A DNA stretch of 27,874 nucleotides from Deltaproteobacteria bacterium TL4 (GTDB lineage Bacteria > SAR324 > NAC60-12), in assembly GCA_051382335.1 (NCBI GenBank), contig JBBCAX010000342.1, positions 1-27,874 of the forward strand. The letters are read 5' to 3'. Positions 1,833-27,531 of this stretch are shown piece by piece. The first letter of the stretch is position 1, and each line of letters starts with the position of its first letter. Under the pieces are notes generated by a model that saw only the letters and a program-made list of their open reading frames with translations, had not been told where the DNA came from and made no database searches. Made by a program: the position numbers and the translations under genes.

Positions 1833-4085
1833 ATGAAACCGTTATCGCAACCAGTAAACGAACCGCAAGAACGCTTGCAGCCTTTAATGGAAGAGTTGAG
1901 CAGGAAACTGGACACCGAACAACTTCGACAATACAGCATGCCCTACCTCAGTGGCGTGCTGTGTCTTCTCGATTCAATTCAGGCGGTGCTCTCTTCACTA
2001 AAATTTCCTGTTTTTTTAAAAGTAATAGACCTTCTCAATCAGTTCATGGGGGACATTCTGGTTGAAAAGATGAGTTATTATAGCGGAATGTCTTATGTCC
2101 TGAATCTTTATGAACTATTTGAGGAGGCATGGTACTCATTGATAACCGGTCAGGAAAAATTTCCTGAACTGGAGCAAAATCTCCTCCGTTTGCGAAGCAT
2201 GTTCAACAGAGTGGACGTGGAAGGAATTATTCAAAGCACGGCTAACGAAGAAGCGACGATTCAGGTCCTGCGGGAAGATCTCAGAAAAGACACGGTCCTG
2301 TCAGATTTTGTCAGCGAGAGTCTGGAGGGCTTGGATGCGGTGGAAGCCACACTGCTGAGATTGGAAAATAATCCTGACCAGCTTGAACTGATCCAACCTG
2401 TTTTCCGCATGATCCATACGATCAAAGGAACCTCGGGATTCCTGGAACTTACCATCATCGGAACCCTGGCTCATCATTTGGAAGATCTGCTGGGGCAACT
2501 TCGGGACAGAACCCGCGTCTTTACGCTTCAGGTTTTTGAGGCTTGCCTTCACTCCGTGGATGTCCTCAAACAACTGATACAACAAGTGAGCGATCTTATT
2601 TATGAAGAGCCTCCTGTTCCTGTGAATGTCAAAGCCGCATATAAATTATTGAGCCTGTGTTTAGTCGCGGAAAAGAAGGTTCCAAGTTTCATTCCTGAGT
2701 TTGATAGCAACGCCTCTGCTTACATAAAACCGCTTGGAGCAATTCTGATAGAAAAAGGCATGGTTTCTCAGGAAGCGGTGAATGAGGCGCTTGAGGAACA
2801 AAACCGTCCCCTGGGGGAAATTCTGGTACAAAAGGGCATCGTTTCCCGTGAGGGCATGAACGCGGCGTTAACAGAACAGAGCACTCTTCCCAAGTCCTCT
2901 GGCAAAGAGGAAATGGTACGTGTCTCGTCTGCGAAATTGGATGAACTGGCGGAACTGATGGGTGAAATGGTGGTCGCGCTCTCCCTTTTGTCACAAAACA
3001 CGGAAATCGCGGCCGTTACCAGCAGAAGAACGCAGACTAACCGAAAAGCCCGTGAACGTCTCGAACAACTGGAAAAAGTCACCGAACATCTACGAGACCG
3101 GATTTTGGGTATGAGGATGTTCCCTGTCGGTTCCATTTTTAACAAACTCTCCCGCCAGGTTCGGGATCTGGCGCATAAATCAGGAAAACACGTCAACCTG
3201 TACTTTGAAGGCGAGGACACTTTGGTGGATAAAACCATTATTGATTCCATGTACTCTCCGCTGATGCATCTGGTCCGGAATGCCATTGATCATGGCCTTG
3301 AGTCCGCTGAGGAACGTCAAGAACAAGGAAAACCGACGGAAGGAAACCTCTACCTGCGAGCGCGACACCAGGGAGATTCCGTGATTCTGGAAATTGTGGA
3401 TGATGGCCGCGGTCTTCAAAGAGAGCTCATTTTGGCAAAAGCGATCAAACAAGGACTGCTCCGTCAGGGAGAAACCCTGACGGATCAACAGGTGTTTGCC
3501 TTTATTTTTCAGGCCGGGTTTTCCACAGCCAGCCAAGTGACTGATGTCTCGGGGCGAGGTGTGGGAATGGATGTCGTGAGACATGAAGTTGAAAAATTAC
3601 GTGGAAAAATCACGATCGAAAGCGCTCCTCATCAGGGAACTACTTTCACCATCCAGTTGCCGCTGACCACCTCCATCATTGAAGGTCTGGTGGTCAGGGT
3701 TGGAGACACTCGTTTTGTGATACCGATGCTGGATGCCAAACTAACCCATATTCCGAAACCCGAAGACCTGAAACGTATCCAGGGCGCGGAACAGGATCTA
3801 TTTCTCTTAGCTGGAGATTTGGTGCCCATTATCCGGCTGCATCAGTTCTATGCGCTGGAAAACGCGGTCACAGATCCCGCCAAAGCGGTCATGATCGTGG
3901 TTCAGGTTGAAAATAAAAAATATGGACTCATGACGGATGAATTATTACAGCGGCAACAGGTTGTCGTCAAAAATTTGGGAGATCGTTTTGCCCACCTCAA
4001 GGGAATCGCGGGTGGAACGATTTTGGGTGATGGGAGAATCGGTTTGATTCTCAATCCCCGCGAAGTGATAACCTGTCATCAATGA
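1833..4085 (+). CDS. cheA: Chemotaxis histidine kinase CheA
   Basis: Hpt FRMIHTIKGTSGFL, dimerisation VRVSSAKLDEL, HATPase PLMHLVRNAIDHG, DDGRG and SGRGVGMDVV, C-terminal CheW domain. Confidence 0.97.
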   Translation: MKPLSQPVNEPQERLQPLMEELSRKLDTEQLRQYSMPYLSGVLCLLDSIQAVLSSLKFPVFLKVIDLLNQFMGDILVEKMSYYSGMSYVLNLYELFEEAWYSLITGQEKFPELEQNLLRLRSMFNRVDVEGIIQSTANEEATIQVLREDLRKDTVLSDFVSESLEGLDAVEATLLRLENNPDQLELIQPVFRMIHTIKGTSGFLELTIIGTLAHHLEDLLGQLRDRTRVFTLQVFEACLHSVDVLKQLIQQVSDLIYEEPPVPVNVKAAYKLLSLCLVAEKKVPSFIPEFDSNASAYIKPLGAILIEKGMVSQEAVNEALEEQNRPLGEILVQKGIVSREGMNAALTEQSTLPKSSGKEEMVRVSSAKLDELAELMGEMVVALSLLSQNTEIAAVTSRRTQTNRKARERLEQLEKVTEHLRDRILGMRMFPVGSIFNKLSRQVRDLAHKSGKHVNLYFEGEDTLVDKTIIDSMYSPLMHLVRNAIDHGLESAEERQEQGKPTEGNLYLRARHQGDSVILEIVDDGRGLQRELILAKAIKQGLLRQGETLTDQQVFAFIFQAGFSTASQVTDVSGRGVGMDVVRHEVEKLRGKITIESAPHQGTTFTIQLPLTTSIIEGLVVRVGDTRFVIPMLDAKLTHIPKPEDLKRIQGAEQDLFLLAGDLVPIIRLHQFYALENAVTDPAKAVMIVVQVENKKYGLMTDELLQRQQVVVKNLGDRFAHLKGIAGGTILGDGRIGLILNPREVITCHQ

Positions 4086-7445: not shown

Positions 7446-8591
7446 ATGAGCTACTATCAGGATTACAAGAGCGATAAACTCACTACCATTCTACTGCCGG
7501 GGGAGGTGTTAGTGACGCAGAAGGATATGGTGATCAGCACGGTGCTGGGCTCCTGTGTGGCTGTCTGTTTGTGGGATGAAAAACACCGTCTGGGAGGCAT
7601 GAATCATGTCATGCTGCCGGTATGTGGAGAACAAGAGGTCCCAACTACCAAATTCGCGAATGTGTCCACTTTTGTGCTGTGTCATTTGCTGAAGGACAAA
7701 GGTCTTCAGCTCCGCTCGTTATCTGCCAGGGTTTTTGGCGGGGCGGATTCCCGGACGGAGGCCGCCAAACAATTGGTTGGAAGTGTGGGGCTTAGAAATC
7801 TGGAGGTGACCTTCGCTGTTTTGCAACGCCTGGGCCTTCCCGTTACAGGGCAAGACATTGGAGGAGGTCAAGGGCGAAAAATCTGGTTTGACGTGGGTTC
7901 TGGAAAAATCAAAATGGTGTATCTGACAAAATATGATTTCACGAGGGAAACGCGGACACTCTTCAAAACGAGTGAAAATCCCACTTTGGAGAGCCTATCC
8001 TCCCGACCGGTTGGCACGCCCAGGGTCATAGCCATTGGAGCTTCAACGGGAGGAACCGAGGCGATCAATAAAATCCTGGCGGGGTTACCCCCGAAAACTC
8101 CAGGCATCGTGATCGCTCAACATATGCCTGAGGCGTTTACGCCTATGTTTGCGGAACGTTTGAATCAAAACTCCCAAATGGAAGTGCGAGAAGCGAGAAA
8201 TGGAGATGAGGTCCGTGAGGGCTTGGCCCTGCTGGCTCCAGGAAATCAACACATGGAACTCAAACTTAAAAACTCCCAATATTACGTGATGTTGAGTCAG
8301 GGGCCCAAAGTGTGTCGGCATCGACCTTCGATTGATGTGCTGTTCAAGTCTGTAGCCGAGACTGCGGGCAAACAGGCGTTGGGGGTTTTATTGACGGGCA
8401 TGGGCTATGATGGAGCACAGGGATTGCTCACGGTGCGTAAACAGGGAGCGATTACCCTGGTACAGGATGAAGCCAGTTCTGTAGTGTTTGGAATGAACAA
8501 GGCCGCCATTGAGTTGGGTGGAGCGCAACAGATTCTTTCTTTGTCAGAAATCGCGTCCAGGCTCTCAACTTTTTCCTTCGTTAAAAACTGA
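7446..8591 (+). CDS. cheB: CheD deamidase fused to CheB methylesterase catalytic domain, no receiver domain
   Basis: aa 1-160 CheD (PGE, TVLGSCVAVCLWD, GGMNHVMLP, VFGGA, VGLRN); aa 193-381 CheB (IGASTGG, QHMP, HRPSIDVLF, LTGMGYDGA); single uninterrupted frame. Confidence 0.93.
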   Translation: MSYYQDYKSDKLTTILLPGEVLVTQKDMVISTVLGSCVAVCLWDEKHRLGGMNHVMLPVCGEQEVPTTKFANVSTFVLCHLLKDKGLQLRSLSARVFGGADSRTEAAKQLVGSVGLRNLEVTFAVLQRLGLPVTGQDIGGGQGRKIWFDVGSGKIKMVYLTKYDFTRETRTLFKTSENPTLESLSSRPVGTPRVIAIGASTGGTEAINKILAGLPPKTPGIVIAQHMPEAFTPMFAERLNQNSQMEVREARNGDEVREGLALLAPGNQHMELKLKNSQYYVMLSQGPKVCRHRPSIDVLFKSVAETAGKQALGVLLTGMGYDGAQGLLTVRKQGAITLVQDEASSVVFGMNKAAIELGGAQQILSLSEIASRLSTFSFVKN

Positions 8592-20703: not shown

Positions 20704-23700
20704 TTATTGACTTATCTTCAATTGCTTCAGTTCCTTCAACACAGAAAGATCCCGGATCTGCGTTCCTTGAAGTTCCAATTGTCGCAAGTTTCTGAGACTT
20801 TTTAAAACGCTAAGATCCTCAATAACAACGCCTCGAATTTTCAAAACTTGTAAGCTGGTCAAATTGGCAATTCCCTTGAGATTCTTGACCTGCGTATGGC
20901 TTAGATCCAGTTGACGTAAGTTTCGGTTCCATTTCAATACCTCAAGCTCATGAATGGGGTTACCACTCAAATCTAAATGGGTTAATTGGTTCAGGTTATT
21001 TAAAGAGGAGATATTGGTAATCCCTGTCATACTGATATCGAGTTCACGAAGTTGGTTCATTCCTTGAGTTACCTTATTTAACTCAGTAAGAGGAACCCCT
21101 CGTAGTTTGAGAACTTTCATTTGGGTTAGTTGCGCAAGAGGCGAAAGGTTTGAGACCGGGACGTAACTTAAGTTGAGCTGTTCTAAGGACGTTAAGTCGG
21201 CTAACGCTTTCAAATCTCGGACTTGGGTTCCTTGCAGATTGAGGGAATGCAACTGCTTGAGCTGACTCAAAGAATCAAGGGACTGGATGGGCGTATGACT
21301 GAGGTTCAGACTGGTTAATTGTGTCAATTCATTAAGAAAAATGACGGAAGCAAGTGAGGTGGAAGCAAGATTTAGCGCAACCAAGTTCTTTAATTGGCTC
21401 AACGCGTGTCCTTGCTCTACGCCTGTAAAACTTAAATTTAGCCGTGTCAATTCAGGAAAAAGTGTTAAAGGACCAAGATCTTTTACGTGCATCATCCCTG
21501 ACAGGTCAGCAGAGCGGATAGGTGGCATTTGGGAAAACTCAGCTTGATAGGTGTCGACTTGTTGTTTGAGTTCAGTGACATTCCAGACTGAAAGCTTTTG
21601 ACGAATCTCCAAATACTGTTTTTGTTCTTCAGGGGACATTTCAGCAATCCTGTTTTCTAAAACGCCACGTTCATTTTTTTCAACTTCGAGGCTTAATTCT
21701 GCTTGAAATTTGCTGAGGACTTGCTGGAGTTTTTCAACGCTAGGGTCTTCACCTTTCAATAAATGACTTTCTATGGCCTGTTGTAGGAGCGCCTGAGTAT
21801 TTTGCTTCCGTTCTTCAGGCAACAGGTGACTTTCTACATTTTTGTATAAATCCTGCATCTCTTGTAAGGACGGAGTCCCTGCTTGAAGCCCTTCTTGTTG
21901 AAAGTCAGACAAAATACGGTGTTCCGCACTTTTTCTCAATACATTCACATATTGGTCGAGGTTTTGGTCAAAAACTGATTGGGATTTGCTTAAACTTTCA
22001 GAATCTTTCAGATAAGTTTGATAATCTCTGACGATGGATTCCGCATCATTGAGGTCTTTCCACATTTCAGGCGTGACAGGAAACTTGGTATTTCTCATGG
22101 TTTGGGCCAAGATTCCTGCGGTGGTAGTCGATTCCAGGACAACCAGCATTTTTTTATTTTTCTTTTGAATGTCCGTATACATTTCATTCCATTCTTCAAT
22201 GGAAAGGTCCTGGGGTTTCGCCAAAGGATCTCCTATCTTCGGATCATCTTCCAGCGCGGCTTTCAACAATTGGTGCGTCTCTTTTTGCAGTTTTAAGGTT
22301 TTCTGAATTTGTTCGCCAACAGGACCTTCCAAGGCTTTCCCCATGGCGTCACTACTTTGAGTTGGGGCCTGTTCGTGGCTGGGAGTGGTACCTTCACTTG
22401 AAAGACGGCTTCCTTGCAAAAAGGAGGGATTCAATGGGGTCAGAGCTTGAATATTACCCGTTTGAGAATTGGTTGACATTTGACCTGCGGGAATCAGTAT
22501 CTTTTCATTCAACATCAATGACGCCAGTTCAACTTTTCCTTCAAGGGTTCCCACTCGTGTGACCGAGTCTTCAAATTCAACAATAAAATCCGTGCCAATC
22601 ACCGTGACTTGGGAAGTGGGTGTCGTGACTTTGACTTGCTCTTGGGATCTTTTCTTAATTTGGACTCGTATTCGCCCTTGCTTCAAGGTCACTAAGGTCA
22701 CAGTAGAATCGTTTGCGTTTTGAGACATCAAAAGGACTTTGGTCAGGCGTTGAATTTCAAGGGTATCTCCGGATTGAAAATGAATCACGGCAACTCCTGA
22801 GGAATCGGTAAAGACAAAATCATCTTCATAAAGTGAAAACTGGGGCTGTTGCACTATTTCTGTTTTATTATTGCGGTTGATTGATACATTTCCAGTTTGA
22901 ACCGTCAACGACGCGACAGAAGGCCGAGTTTGCTTCAAGGTTTTTTCAAGCGTACTTTTCCAAAAAATCAATCCTGTAATGGCGATGACAGCTAAAATTC
23001 CAGTGAGGCCAATCAGTAAACTGAGATTTCCAGCTTTTGATGTTTTCTTCTTTTTTGAGATTCCCCTTGGTTTGTTTTCACTCGGTTGGGGCGGTTCTTG
23101 TAATAGTTTAAACTTATGAGACAAGACCTCGTAGGAATCGGTCAGGCCGCAAGTCTCTCGCAGCTCCTCCAGTAACATCTGAACTTCGGTGAAATTATTC
23201 TGTTCGATCTGGATCTGAATCATTTCTTCAAAAACGTGCTCTATGAGAGCGCTATAGTTATTACTTTTTCCATATTTTGACTTGTAATCATGCAGCAAAG
23301 ATTTGGCTTTTTCGAAGTTTTTCTTTTCTATGGCATCATTGATTTTAATCTGTAATCCAAAGGCTTTTGTTGTCGCTGCCATTTGCAAAGATTCGAGGGC
23401 TTGGGAATCTTCTTGCGCCAATTCAAATACTTTTTTCATATGAGCATAAAGTTCTCGTTCCAAACGGGTAAACTCCTGATCCGCGGCAATAACCCGCACC
23501 ACCAGTTCAGCCACCTCCTTTTTTCCTTGTTCATCCAAGGTCAACGCTAATTTTTTTATGTTCTGATCAAAGCGTTCTTCTGTATTTGTAAGACTTAAGA
23601 CAACCTGAACCCGATCCTTGATGAACTGGGTTATCGCCTCCCGATCTTCAGCAACATGGGTTTCGATAAAGCTCAGAATCACTTCCAACTCTGAATCTTC

Positions 23701-23766
23701 AAAACCATCAATGCCGCTCATGATGAGTAAACATTCCAATAATTGATCGATCTGTTCATTAGTCAT
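20704..23766 (-). CDS. TerB-like / TM / FecR / leucine-rich repeat protein (start 23766 or 23790)
   Basis: IMSGIDG..DSE and VIAADQEFTRLERE TerB-like motifs; TM LSLLIGLTGILAVIAITGLIFW; FecR LKQGRI...VTTPTSQVTVIGTDFIV; about 11-12 22-aa LxxLxLSxTxV repeats. The ORF-track start overlaps trxB by 53 nt. Confidence 0.85.
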   Translation of the reverse strand: MTNEQIDQLLECLLIMSGIDGFEDSELEVILSFIETHVAEDREAITQFIKDRVQVVLSLTNTEERFDQNIKKLALTLDEQGKKEVAELVVRVIAADQEFTRLERELYAHMKKVFELAQEDSQALESLQMAATTKAFGLQIKINDAIEKKNFEKAKSLLHDYKSKYGKSNNYSALIEHVFEEMIQIQIEQNNFTEVQMLLEELRETCGLTDSYEVLSHKFKLLQEPPQPSENKPRGISKKKKTSKAGNLSLLIGLTGILAVIAITGLIFWKSTLEKTLKQTRPSVASLTVQTGNVSINRNNKTEIVQQPQFSLYEDDFVFTDSSGVAVIHFQSGDTLEIQRLTKVLLMSQNANDSTVTLVTLKQGRIRVQIKKRSQEQVKVTTPTSQVTVIGTDFIVEFEDSVTRVGTLEGKVELASLMLNEKILIPAGQMSTNSQTGNIQALTPLNPSFLQGSRLSSEGTTPSHEQAPTQSSDAMGKALEGPVGEQIQKTLKLQKETHQLLKAALEDDPKIGDPLAKPQDLSIEEWNEMYTDIQKKNKKMLVVLESTTTAGILAQTMRNTKFPVTPEMWKDLNDAESIVRDYQTYLKDSESLSKSQSVFDQNLDQYVNVLRKSAEHRILSDFQQEGLQAGTPSLQEMQDLYKNVESHLLPEERKQNTQALLQQAIESHLLKGEDPSVEKLQQVLSKFQAELSLEVEKNERGVLENRIAEMSPEEQKQYLEIRQKLSVWNVTELKQQVDTYQAEFSQMPPIRSADLSGMMHVKDLGPLTLFPELTRLNLSFTGVEQGHALSQLKNLVALNLASTSLASVIFLNELTQLTSLNLSHTPIQSLDSLSQLKQLHSLNLQGTQVRDLKALADLTSLEQLNLSYVPVSNLSPLAQLTQMKVLKLRGVPLTELNKVTQGMNQLRELDISMTGITNISSLNNLNQLTHLDLSGNPIHELEVLKWNRNLRQLDLSHTQVKNLKGIANLTSLQVLKIRGVVIEDLSVLKSLRNLRQLELQGTQIRDLSVLKELKQLKISQ

Positions 23767-23779
23767 GTCGGCCGTACCG

Positions 23780-25066
23780 TTATTGCGCATCGTCGATTTC
23801 TCTGGTCGCTGTGATAGCAGCCTTCGTACCATCGGATACCGCTACCGTAATTTGGCGATAGGGATTATTGGCCACATCTCCAACCGCAAAAACATCTTTT
23901 ACATTCGTTCTCATGAAAACATCTGTTTTTATATAACCCCATTGATCTTTTTCGAACACATCCCCGAAAACATCGATGTTGGGTTTCATCCCCGCAAAAA
24001 TAAAGACGCCATGAGTGGAAAGCGTTTTATGCTCCTGGGTTTTTAAATTTTCGACGATAACTGCCATTCCCTTTTCCGTCTTTTCAAATTTTCTGGGCTC
24101 ATGCTCAAACAAAAACGCGATTTTTTCATTGGCGAACGCTCTTTCTTGAGCCAGCTTATTGGCCTGTAACTTGGCAAATTGGTGGACGATTGTCAGTTTT
24201 GAAGCAAATTTTGTGATAAACAGAGATTCTTCAACCGCTGAATTCCCTCCCCCAATCACGATCACTTCTTTATCTTCAAAATATTTTCCGTCACAAGTGG
24301 CACAATAACTGATCCCATCGCCTTTATACTCTTCTTCGCCGGGAACGCCCAATAATCGGTGACTTGAACCGGTCGCTATAATGATTTTTTTAGCTCTAAT
24401 CGTTTCAATGCCATCAATGACAAGCTCTTTCTTGTAAAGATCCGCACTGGTCACATCCACCGCGTACCGTCTTTCAACGCCTGCGCCAACAGCTTGTTCA
24501 TTCATTTGATGCATTAACATAAAGCCTTCAATGGGGGCTATAAACCCGGGAAAGTTACTGACCAGATGAGTTTTGGAGACCTGTCCCCCAGCGAGTCCCA
24601 CGTCAATAATGACGGTTCTTAATTTAGCTTGAGCCGTGTAAATTCCAGCGGTTAAGCCCGCGGGGCCGGCTCCGAGAATGGCAATATCGAACTCTGTTTC
24701 AAAGGGCTGAATTTTACTTTTCAAGGCGGTTGCCTGTTCGGTGCCAAGCATGGCGTCAAGGTTTTTGACGATATCCGCCCTTTTGATGCCGCCCGTCAAC
24801 TTGTCGCCAACAATTTTTCCATTATTATAAAACAACAGCGTTGGCGAACTGTTAACCTTCAGCTTATTCGCCAGTTCCCGATTCCCCTGTCTGAAAATTT
24901 TAACAAATTTAATATCTTTTCCGTAAATCTCGTTCAGGCTACTGAATTTTGAGGCTAAGGCTTCACAGGGTGGACATTCGGTAGAATAAAAGTCAAACGC
25001 GACAAGTCCGCCCTTGAGTATCTCACTTTCATATTGACCCGCGTTAATTTCCATAATTTTTCCCAT
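23780..25066 (-). CDS. trxB: Thioredoxin::thioredoxin reductase fusion
   Basis: N-terminal Trx DFYSTECPPC; GAGPAG, SYCATCDG, GGGNSA and VFAVGDV in the reductase. Confidence 0.93.
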   Translation of the reverse strand: MGKIMEINAGQYESEILKGGLVAFDFYSTECPPCEALASKFSSLNEIYGKDIKFVKIFRQGNRELANKLKVNSSPTLLFYNNGKIVGDKLTGGIKRADIVKNLDAMLGTEQATALKSKIQPFETEFDIAILGAGPAGLTAGIYTAQAKLRTVIIDVGLAGGQVSKTHLVSNFPGFIAPIEGFMLMHQMNEQAVGAGVERRYAVDVTSADLYKKELVIDGIETIRAKKIIIATGSSHRLLGVPGEEEYKGDGISYCATCDGKYFEDKEVIVIGGGNSAVEESLFITKFASKLTIVHQFAKLQANKLAQERAFANEKIAFLFEHEPRKFEKTEKGMAVIVENLKTQEHKTLSTHGVFIFAGMKPNIDVFGDVFEKDQWGYIKTDVFMRTNVKDVFAVGDVANNPYRQITVAVSDGTKAAITATREIDDAQ

Positions 25067-25067
25067 T

Positions 25068-26378
25068 TTAATTCTCCCTATTGAAATATATTGAAATTCC
25101 CATCTCCAATAATTGAGCTACTGGACGACAATCTTCAGACAACAGCGCACCGCCTCTTTTCTTGGCCACAGAGGCACATCCGCCTCCGCAGGCTAAGGCC
25201 AGGTTACAGCGCCGACATTTGTCGATCGATAAAACATCTCGCTTTCCCCATGCTTCAAGGAGGTCTTCTTTTTTAGTGATTTGTGGGTAAAAGGTACCCA
25301 GTTCCTCTCCTTTTTTTCCAACGGTTGCGGTGCAGGCGTAAATGTTGCCAGTGTAATCAAAAGCCCATTCTGACTTGGTCGCAGGACAAGCATCAAAAAG
25401 CGGCTCAGGAAGTTCACCCTGGTCAAACAGAAATCTTGACACAGAAAAAGCCGGTTTATGAAATTTAAGAAAATCAGGATATTTTTTGACTATTTCATAA
25501 ATTCTCTCATAGAGACTGATTCTGGTATACAATTTGGAACTGTCGGACTGGCAGGTGTGCAATTCATAATTTCGCCCAAGTTGTGTCTTAAACAGAGGGG
25601 TGTCCGTCCATCCCCTGTCAATGGCGTACTTGGCGAGTTCCTCCAGGTTATCAATATTTTCTTTGTCCACAACAACCCTTAAATTGATGGGGATTTCGTG
25701 GTCTAAGCATAAATCGATACCCGAGACAATTCTATCAAAAGTAGCGCTTCCATTTTTCAAGGCTCTTCTTTTATTGTGAAGATCTTGGGTCCCATCGAGC
25801 GTAACCTGGATTTCCTTAAGGGAGGCTTTTTTCAAAAGCTCGACATATTCAACCAGCGTATATCCGTTGGTCACAGCCGCTATTTGAAGGTGTCTTTGAT
25901 TGGCTTTCTCAATGAGGGCTTTAACGTTTTTTTTGCTGCTTCCATTATTCAAGAACGGTTCGCCACCAAAAAGGGTAATATATTTCTTCCTGGAGCCAAA
26001 CTCATGGTCAATATAGTGAAAAAAGGAGTCGAGGATTTCATCAGTCAAGGGATTTTGTTCTTGAATATACTCCCTTTGGTAGCAATACTCGCAGTTAAAA
26101 TTGCAACTGTAGTGAGGGACAAAAAATATCTGAATTTCATCATGTTCCCTGTTTTCAAGAAATTCGAGATATTTCATTTTAAACATTTCGTTTTCTTTTT
26201 TTTCCTCTACCAAATAGCCTTTTTCGATATACTCATCCCTCTCTGAGTATTGTTCTGTTTCAATTTCACGGGCTTTTTGCGGGGAAAGAATATCGGCGTT
26301 TCCTGTCAACAGGTTGACTATAAAAAAATCATCAGAATCTTTAATTTTTGAGAAAATATTGTGGCGAGAGAAAATCAC
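25068..26378 (-). CDS. Radical SAM/SPASM peptide maturase
   Basis: CNFNCEYC, FGGEP, TNG, QVTLDG; seven-Cys SPASM (ACPA, YACT, CRRCNLALACGGGC, DCR); ~80-aa N-terminal extension resembling an RRE. Confidence 0.93.
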   Translation of the reverse strand: MIFSRHNIFSKIKDSDDFFIVNLLTGNADILSPQKAREIETEQYSERDEYIEKGYLVEEKKENEMFKMKYLEFLENREHDEIQIFFVPHYSCNFNCEYCYQREYIQEQNPLTDEILDSFFHYIDHEFGSRKKYITLFGGEPFLNNGSSKKNVKALIEKANQRHLQIAAVTNGYTLVEYVELLKKASLKEIQVTLDGTQDLHNKRRALKNGSATFDRIVSGIDLCLDHEIPINLRVVVDKENIDNLEELAKYAIDRGWTDTPLFKTQLGRNYELHTCQSDSSKLYTRISLYERIYEIVKKYPDFLKFHKPAFSVSRFLFDQGELPEPLFDACPATKSEWAFDYTGNIYACTATVGKKGEELGTFYPQITKKEDLLEAWGKRDVLSIDKCRRCNLALACGGGCASVAKKRGGALLSEDCRPVAQLLEMGISIYFNREN

Positions 26379-26414: not shown

Positions 26415-26447
26415 GCAAGTAAGGAGGAATCAAGTCTCCCTACTTGC
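26415..26447 (-). terminator. Stem-loop between peptide gene and maturase (attenuator or mRNA stabiliser)
   Basis: Minus-strand GCAAGTAGGGAG-9 nt-CTCCTTACTTGC, 12-bp stem with one G-U pair; no U tract. Confidence 0.6.
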
Positions 26448-26463
26448 CGCTTATTGATCGAGA

Positions 26464-26559
26464 CTAGTCATGGCAACCAGCAACAGCAGTCGATACCTTT
26501 GCACAACACTGTGCGACGGCTTTGCAGTTACAGGACTTCTTTTTTATCAAAGACTTCAT
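26464..26559 (-). CDS. 31-aa Cys-rich putative RiPP precursor
   Basis: MKSLIKKKSCNCKAVAQCCAKVSTAVAGCHD*, AAGGAG 5 nt before the ATG, directly upstream of the SPASM gene. Confidence 0.88.
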   Translation of the reverse strand: MKSLIKKKSCNCKAVAQCCAKVSTAVAGCHD

Positions 26560-26598
26560 GCGTTCTCCTTGTTTGAGGTTAACGAAACTATGGCAGAA

Positions 26599-27237
26599 TC
26601 AGGGTTTCCAGCCCATGATGGTAAAACTGGAAACCACGGTCTTGCCTTTTTCATAAGGCTCACTTTCCTTACACACGGTAATACGTTCAAAGCCGGTATT
26701 CTTCAGTGTGGTCAGATATTCATCTCTTGTTACGGCTCCTGCCCAGCATTCGGATATTGCGACTAGATCATTTTTGTATTCGTCAGGAATAACTTCTGAT
26801 GAGTAAATATCACTCACAACAAATCGGCCTCCCTGCTTTAAAATTCTGTAGATCTCTCGCCAAACCGCCTTTTTATCGGTCGCGTGATTGATCGTACAGT
26901 TTGATACAACCAGATCTGCTTTTTCATCCGCAAGGGGTAAATGACGCAGCTCTGTTTGAACAAACTCAACATTATGTACGTCGAGCTTTTCCGCATTTTC
27001 TCTGGATTTTTTGAGCATCCCTTCAGAAACATCGATGCCATAGCAAAATCCCTCTTCACCAACAATTATGGCCATTTTCAACAAGTCATGACCTCTGCCA
27101 CTGCCCAAGTCAACACAGACTTCACCCTTTTGCGGCTTGGAAGAATCTAAGGTGTCTCCACATGATAAACAACATTGACCCTCAGCAAGATCCGAATATC
27201 TCCTATTGATTTCCTCAAGGCTAATCTCAATGGACAT
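26599..27237 (-). CDS. arsM: Arsenite methyltransferase (ArsM/AS3MT)-like SAM methyltransferase
   Basis: CCLSCG, DLGSGRG, SNCTINH (C114), ECWAGA (C164); GGGAG RBS. Confidence 0.78.
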   Translation of the reverse strand: MSIEISLEEINRRYSDLAEGQCCLSCGDTLDSSKPQKGEVCVDLGSGRGHDLLKMAIIVGEEGFCYGIDVSEGMLKKSRENAEKLDVHNVEFVQTELRHLPLADEKADLVVSNCTINHATDKKAVWREIYRILKQGGRFVVSDIYSSEVIPDEYKNDLVAISECWAGAVTRDEYLTTLKNTGFERITVCKESEPYEKGKTVVSSFTIMGWKP

Positions 27238-27270: not shown

Positions 27271-27429
27271 TCATTTCCAATTGACTTCTATTTTTTTATC
27301 CCCAATTTCTTTTTTTGCGATTTTTGCCAAGCTTAGAAGTTCATCTTTGCAGCAATCAATTGTTTTTGCATTTTTTATTCGTTGAGCCAATTCGTCAGCA
27401 AACTCACTTATTGTAATTACTTTTTTCAT
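27271..27429 (-). CDS. 52-aa small protein with vicinal Cys-Cys
   Basis: MKKVITISEFADELAQRIKNAKTIDCCKDELLSLAKIAKKEIGDKKIEVNWK*, GGAG RBS, stop 33 nt before the methyltransferase start. Confidence 0.8.
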   Translation of the reverse strand: MKKVITISEFADELAQRIKNAKTIDCCKDELLSLAKIAKKEIGDKKIEVNWK

Positions 27430-27531
27430 CGTCTTCTCCATGGTTTAATGTAAGATTTCAATCTTTACTCTTTGAAGCTAATTGCTTCCACAAACTTATT
27501 ATTCCAAGGTCCAGAGCAATATCCCTAGTCT

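Follow-up and report, generated by a model that had tools for sequence, protein, structure and literature searches.

The window analysed here, a stretch of 27,874 nucleotides from the genome of Deltaproteobacteria bacterium TL4, carries a cassette of four genes that follow each other on the minus strand and encode, in this order, a short ArsM-like methyltransferase (26599..27237), a peptide of 31 aa (26464..26559, TAG stop included), a radical SAM (rSAM)/SPASM enzyme of the RRE type (25068..26378), and a fusion of thioredoxin and thioredoxin reductase (Trx-TrxR, 23780..25066). All parts of the peptide finding lie on this same strand: the ORF (26559..26464) is translated into MKSLIKKKSCNCKAVAQCCAKVSTAVAGCHD and ends with TAG, a ribosome-binding site AAGGAG (26570..26565) precedes its ATG by 5 nt, and a stem-loop of 12 bp (26447..26415) follows 16 nt after the stop. 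These elements had been pointed out in a previous sequence-only reading of the same DNA, together with five Cys and a CC-x9-CHD ending, and each of them was recovered, the Cys being C10, C12, C18, C19, and C29 with the correct spacing. The core named at that time (QCCAK..GCHD) corresponds to the conserved part of the peptide, with three invariant Cys. That reading had been unable to assign the peptide to a named family, and it indeed matched no NCBIfam or Pfam family, nor the precursor models of the Cys-peptide maturase families, including the six-Cys SCIFF peptide model. The only annotation found for it was "hypothetical protein," its Atlas matches were all below 0.9 and serve as leads only, and the viral contigs searched contained no relative.

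Scanning species genomes for the rSAM/SPASM enzyme yielded 79 loci from the best 80 of 95 confirmed matches (48-59% identity), which span Bacteroidota, Spirochaetota, Ignavibacteria, Gemmatimonadota, Elusimicrobiota, a Chitinispirillaceae, and a deltaproteobacterium. The peptide pattern was present in 75 of these 79 maturase loci, the methyltransferase in 75, and a Trx-TrxR match, weak in one case, in 71. The sequence-only reading had made its own case depend on a conserved peptide ORF beside maturase homologs, and it withstood this test, since such an ORF adjoins them in 75/79 loci. Among the four loci lacking the peptide, L074 is truncated, and the genome of L052 (G041) has the peptide, the hairpin and Trx-TrxR on another contig; L066 and L077 carry the maturase with no peptide found genome-wide (the completeness of these genomes is not given). 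Metagenome loci anchored on the methyltransferase held the peptide in 10 of 12 cases, both misses lying at contig ends. Across 101 genomes of the Bacteroidota family to which G041 belongs, the peptide, the maturase, and the short methyltransferase (called at E < 1e-75, the next class being at 1e-40 or weaker) were found in the same 19 genomes and in none of the 82 others; this three-way co-occurrence is a pattern rather than a p-value, as kin genomes are not independent. In G041 itself all four cassette genes are retained despite a split over two contigs, with the peptide, hairpin and Trx-TrxR on one (L103 1501-2946, G041:C14) and the abutting methyltransferase and maturase genes on the other (L052). 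The peptide is very probably the substrate or a ligand of the maturase. Its distribution in the window's own phylum is patchy: of the 88 genomes searched there, many of them incomplete, two carried it (G000, that of the window, and G009). The closest named maturase (73%) is labeled SAR324, and relatives of the enzyme at E < 1e-40 count in the thousands. Duplications were observed as well: a Bacteroidales genome has two tandem copies of peptide plus maturase (L008, 107-1426 and 3498-4984), and the genome G143 has two peptide copies.

The 59 distinct peptides are 30-37 aa long and consist of a fixed core and a variable linker behind a basic N-terminus. The latter, M-[KNRT]-[ST]-[LV]-[IV]-K-K (26536..26559, minus strand), is a predicted leader, and its conservation is partly built in since positions 2-5 entered the rule for picking start codons. 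The core, A-Q-C-C-A-K-x-[ST]-x-x-x-x-G-C-H-[DN] (26467..26514, minus strand), has its A, A, K, and G in 59/59 distinct peptides, as well as Ser or Thr at the variable S/T position in 59/59; the search pattern itself required CC, CH, and D/N, yet just 4/79 loci failed it. Only three Cys of the peptide are thus invariant (CC-x9-C). The CxC formed by C10 and C12 in the window's peptide is not conserved and is incidental, because any Cys before the core occurs in only 11/59 distinct peptides, and we rejected it as a piece of a functional motif. At the DNA level, the 72 distinct sequences use two to four synonymous codons at each of the invariant residues and all three stop codons. The peptide gene is real: its recurrence, its synonymous variation and the conserved hairpin behind it go beyond chance.

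This hairpin contains one G-U pair among its 12 bp, with one further G-U pair possible, and has a 9-nt loop and no U tract. The 111-nt stretch examined folds with z = -2.76, none of 200 shuffles being as good. A strong hairpin, as judged by shuffling, follows the peptide stop in 52/75 loci, versus 1/75 for an upstream control stretch. Among 53 hairpins there are 52 different sequences: it is the structure that is conserved, not the sequence. No Rfam family was matched. A canonical terminator was considered and rejected, as terminator prediction does not call one and a U-rich tail is found in only 14/53. We predict a stabilizer of the mRNA or a partial terminator, and it is plausible that the hairpin would raise the level of the precursor mRNA.

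The rSAM/SPASM enzyme (436 aa, GTG start) has the CxxxCxxC motif (C92/96/99) and two sets of SPASM Cys (C331/349/401 and C388/391/397/417), all invariant in 65/65 members aligned. Its AlphaFold2 model (pLDDT 90, above 90 at the N-terminus) begins with three strands (7-11, 18-22, and 27-31) and three helices (33-41, 47-52, and 59-79); this secondary structure and a near full-length match to CteB identify the N-terminus as RRE-like, while no RRE profile matched. As in rSAM/SPASM RiPP systems in general, a short ORF that is conserved and whose product divides into a leader-like and a core-like part lies next to the enzyme gene. The best NCBIfam scores were obtained with CefB (NF038107, over its full length; 151 bits for a cut-off of 600), TIGR04463 (142/525), Clo7bot (TIGR04334, 117/600), and PapB (NF047865, 116/340), none of them reached: the scores amount to about a third of the cut-off or less, and the peptide, in contrast to those of these families, shows neither a Cys at every fifth position nor a Cx3D repeat. 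The closest resemblance is to the SCIFF system (CteA-CteB; TIGR03974; PDB 5WGG, 5WHY), which shares the RRE + rSAM + SPASM architecture, provides the best sequence and fold match (CteB being the best PDB match), and also relies on a short, highly conserved Cys peptide with Ser or Thr four to five residues after a Cys. Yet, the enzyme scores 87.8 bits with TIGR03974 versus a cut-off of 425, the peptide has 31 aa and three Cys in a CC-x9-C arrangement, the active-site His is absent, and an ArsM-like methyltransferase and a Trx-TrxR fusion are obligate here. The six residues proximal to the active site, mapped by hand on the CteB match, are Y-F-V-T-T-A and nearly invariant, the position of CteB His363 being Thr in 64/65 maturases. 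They fit neither the F-F-T-S-H-Q of CteB nor the Y-T-I-S-K-L of StsB, the type seen with hairpin-forming sactipeptides (PMC10288494), and this leaves room for other chemistry. Two further features stand out. An eighth Cys, C334, is present in 60/65 family members and replaced by Thr in the window's enzyme; from its inferred placement, it may occupy the open iron site on which thioether formers rely. The last barrel strand is followed by an invariant loop, G268-R-N-Y-E-L-H-x-C276, with the extra H274-x-C276. The cassette works like an RRE-dependent rSAM/SPASM RiPP system and falls outside every named family tested.

The methyltransferase (212 aa, with C22, C23, C26, C114, and C164) has the SAM-dependent ArsM fold, and its top ten Foldseek matches are all ArsM. 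Compared to ArsM/AS3MT (PRK11873; PDB 4FSD, 4FR0, 5EVJ, 8XT7), which match it best in both sequence and structure, it has the same fold, the same Cys positions and a thioredoxin partner, but it is shorter, forms its own clade and lies outside ars operons. C26, C114, and C164 are invariant in 64/64 sequences and align to the Cys of the GCG, SNC, and ECL motifs of CmArsM, and the fourth Cys typical of ArsM can be assigned to the N-terminal CC, which is present in 64/64 (60 in the column, 4 shifted), with a different spacing. The PRK11873 cut-off of 263 bits is not reached by the window's enzyme (192) or by that of L005 (196). Against 15 ArsMs chosen for their adjoining acr3, the median length is 215 versus ∼268 aa, i.e., about 55 aa less. 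ArsM has a segment of ∼30 residues that separates its N-terminal CC from the (L/G)xCG motif, and also a C-terminal insert; both are absent here. In the phylogenetic tree, for which 10 of the 64 sequences were used, the short methyltransferases form a clade of their own (99/99), on a long branch, beside the acr3-linked ArsMs (85/82), the outgroup branches being long as well. A second, longer ArsM match was found in 13/19 cassette genomes, and the short enzyme therefore looks less like a replacement than like a dedicated part of the cassette. ArsM works with four conserved Cys in a disulfide cascade, and thioredoxin is the suggested reductant (PMC6138428); such a cascade would explain the Trx-TrxR fusion. 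The fusion protein (428 aa) has intact redox motifs across the loci, with the CPPC of its thioredoxin part in 56/59 and the CATC of its reductase part in 59/59. A variable, Cys-rich C-terminal tail was observed in 30/64 short methyltransferases, that of the window being without it. The window's genome also has a second ArsM-like gene (L081 871-1944, G000:C84), whose product of ∼357 aa carries a 37-residue insert and is distinct from both the short clade and the acr3-linked ArsMs.

When the ORFs of 15 canonical ars loci were searched against the 79 cassette loci, we found one ArsR-like gene, one piece of Acr3 and no ArsC, so that only 2/79 loci show any ars gene and the cassette cannot be considered part of an ars operon. 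A Pfam search of 149 neighbor proteins, which represent all 81 multi-locus clusters and leave 194/259 single-locus clusters unscanned, retrieved as recurrent neighbors IS1595 (32 loci), DUF302 (23), thioredoxin (20), MarR (9), Crp (8), DUF1847 (7), and OsmC (5); the recurrent neighbors are thiol/redox genes and the recurrent regulator is MarR. Exporter or peptidase/protease families were found in no more than three of the 79 loci among the neighbors scanned. Genomes with the cassette are not clearly richer in acr3 (18/19 versus 63/82 of the others, p = 0.11) or in a second ArsM (13/19 versus 37/82, p = 0.08). A role as the genome's general arsenic defense was discarded, given that acr3 and a further ArsM-like gene lie elsewhere in the window's genome, on different contigs.

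Collectively, we tentatively propose that the cassette encodes an intracellular, arsenic-linked RiPP pathway in which the peptide is the rSAM substrate and its three Cys hold As(III) for an ArsM-like methylation; we consider the chances of this reading to be close to balanced. Of the two chemistries suggested for the peptide by the sequence-only reading, As(III) binding and thioether links, the ArsM-type Cys set of the methyltransferase favors the former. The basic N-terminus of the peptide would bind the RRE of the maturase, and C18, C19, and C29 would bind As(III) or methyl-As(III) as do the three Cys of the RCCLKC motif in ArsL, a motif that resembles both the CCLSC of the methyltransferase and the CC..C of the peptide; rSAM enzymes are also able to form C-As bonds (PMC13598754). 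The methyltransferase might then transfer methyl groups from SAM through the ArsM disulfide cascade, with its disulfides and the peptide thiols re-reduced by the Trx-TrxR fusion and NADPH. The rSAM enzyme would form a radical at a carbon of the core, for which the invariant Ser/Thr four residues after CC is a candidate site, and arsenic or a Cys sulfur would trap this radical. The hairpin may keep the peptide mRNA above that of the downstream genes. The product presumably remains inside the cell. A more specific version, in which the peptide captures As(III), the mini-ArsM methylates it on the peptide, and the RRE-SPASM rSAM enzyme forms a peptide C-As bond, giving a widespread class of peptide-templated organoarsenicals in several phyla of bacteria from sediment and groundwater, seems unlikely on present grounds. 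Judging from the sequences, any arsenic role would have to be reconciled with the counter-evidence of few ars neighbors, a missed ArsM cut-off, and maturase kin that are mostly thioether formers.

The main competing explanation is a thioether RiPP free of arsenic, which we regard as somewhat unlikely but by no means far-fetched. The rSAM enzyme would link one or two core Cys to a nearby carbon (a ranthionine or sactionine, e.g., at the Ser/Thr invariant in the core), the ArsM-like enzyme would methylate a remaining thiol of the peptide, Trx-TrxR would keep the precursor reduced, and the product would have a role in thiol or oxidative stress under MarR control. The scarcity of ars neighbors and the presence of redox genes nearby favor such links, as do the best NCBIfam scores, all with Cys-peptide maturases, and CteB as best structural match. 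The 3+4 pattern of the SPASM Cys in the window's maturase (C331, C349, C401; C388, C391, C397, C417) is also like that of the thioether former CrpC (PMC13692751). However, the Thr in place of CteB His363 and a proximal profile fitting neither CteB nor StsB do not match this chemistry, C334 could, if placed as inferred, close the open iron site, and a whole ArsM Cys set is not obviously needed by a peptide methylase.

It is distinctly unlikely that the peptide gives rise to a small redox cofactor or thiol buffer, following the logic of mycofactocin or PQQ and recycled by Trx-TrxR, or that other chemistry takes place, such as an epimerization with C276 as hydrogen donor. The epimerase EpeE uses a Cys as H donor, and the structure of its C223A mutant is among the structural matches of the maturase. 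The near-invariant C-terminus of the peptide, the lack of export, a dedicated reductase that stays with the peptide when the cassette splits, and the invariant loop ending in C276 would all fit, but no recurrent peptidase that could release the core was found, EpeE ranks far below CteB in structure matches, and the ArsM-type Cys set is left unexplained. Improbable, too, is an unmodified As(III) carrier, that is, an ArsD-like chaperone docked on the RRE, on which the two SAM enzymes would build a small organoarsenical in the manner of ArsM with ArsS or ArsL. The CC..C thiol triad and a core as invariant as expected of a carrier speak for it, and the mini-ArsM beside an rSAM gene mirrors the arsenosugar and arsinothricin clusters (PMC12159101, PMC13598754). 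Yet, the rSAM enzyme belongs to the RRE-SPASM type of peptide maturases, its best 25 matches of 77 listed NCBIfam families include neither an ArsS nor an ArsL model, the peptide has a leader-linker-core layout, and ars neighbors are few. Finally, that the methyltransferase is extended by selenocysteine read-through, with the peptide as its tail, has a negligible probability: the methyltransferase TGA of the window shares its frame with the peptide and no further stop intervenes (26560-26601, minus strand), and the genome has a tRNA-Sec, but a TGA with an open frame occurs in only 2/73 loci (open frames after TAA or TAG in 3), which refutes read-through as a general rule for want of a conserved in-frame TGA, the peptide of the closest relative, G009, lies in another frame, and the window's peptide has its own RBS.

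Returning to the arsenic-linked pathway that we favor, its nearest precedents are the routes to arsinothricin (ArsL + ArsM) and arsenosugars (ArsS + ArsM), which likewise pair an rSAM enzyme with ArsM; unlike the cassette with its peptide-maturase type enzyme, they act on SAM and free arsenic and have no precursor peptide. A preprint from around 2023 is said to describe an arsenic-containing RiPP ("AsRiPP"), with arsenic on a ribosomal peptide and a methyltransferase plus an rSAM enzyme, reportedly encoded by a cyanobacterial cluster with another gene set. Work of this type has reportedly also been linked to Roseimarinus, a member of the Prolixibacteraceae; this family is rich in the cassette studied here. 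No description of the cassette was found in the literature searched, which did not extend to subscription journals and several supplement files, and neither CCAK nor GCHD occurs in the readable parts of the supplements of PMC10288494 (a sheet of 3,421 precursors), PMC9062424, PMC7470986, and PMC10352776. It is quite unlikely, in our view, that the cassette is already in print. The cassette is common (19/101 genomes in one Bacteroidota family) and crosses phyla, with a peptide core that is nearly unchanged, which argues for a single product of importance. Should arsenic be the substrate, this would represent a new route to C-As bonds and would add to arsenic cycling in anoxic sediments. If the pathway is free of arsenic, it would still constitute an unnamed RiPP family, with a maturase whose active-site signature is unlike that of characterized thioether formers and whose ArsM-derived partner enzyme has a new specificity. 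With its four small soluble genes, the cassette lends itself to direct tests in E. coli.

Just upstream of the methyltransferase gene, the window encodes a Cys-Cys microprotein of 56 aa (27271..27441, minus strand), which we consider an accessory. Its relatives (62-75% identity) were found in G009 and in three of the 79 loci (L018, L038, L078), all spirochaete loci where it lies downstream of the cassette; it had no match in Pfam, NCBIfam, or Atlas. On the other side, directly downstream of the Trx-TrxR fusion, whose end its start overlaps, lies a gene for a protein of 1042 aa (20704-23832, minus strand) that combines a FecR domain and a membrane segment with leucine-rich repeats (LRR) of the internalin kind and does not recur as a neighbor across the loci. 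The rest of the window (chemotaxis genes, this LRR protein, and an RND transporter) looks unrelated to the cassette. The chemotaxis genes include, both on the plus strand, a CheD-CheB fusion (7446-8591) and a CheA (1833-4085) that carries a c-di-GMP-binding motif of the MshE type. Between 27629 and 27745, three short palindromes with a common GGCAGAGCC core, present in 58 copies in the genome, resemble REP repeats.
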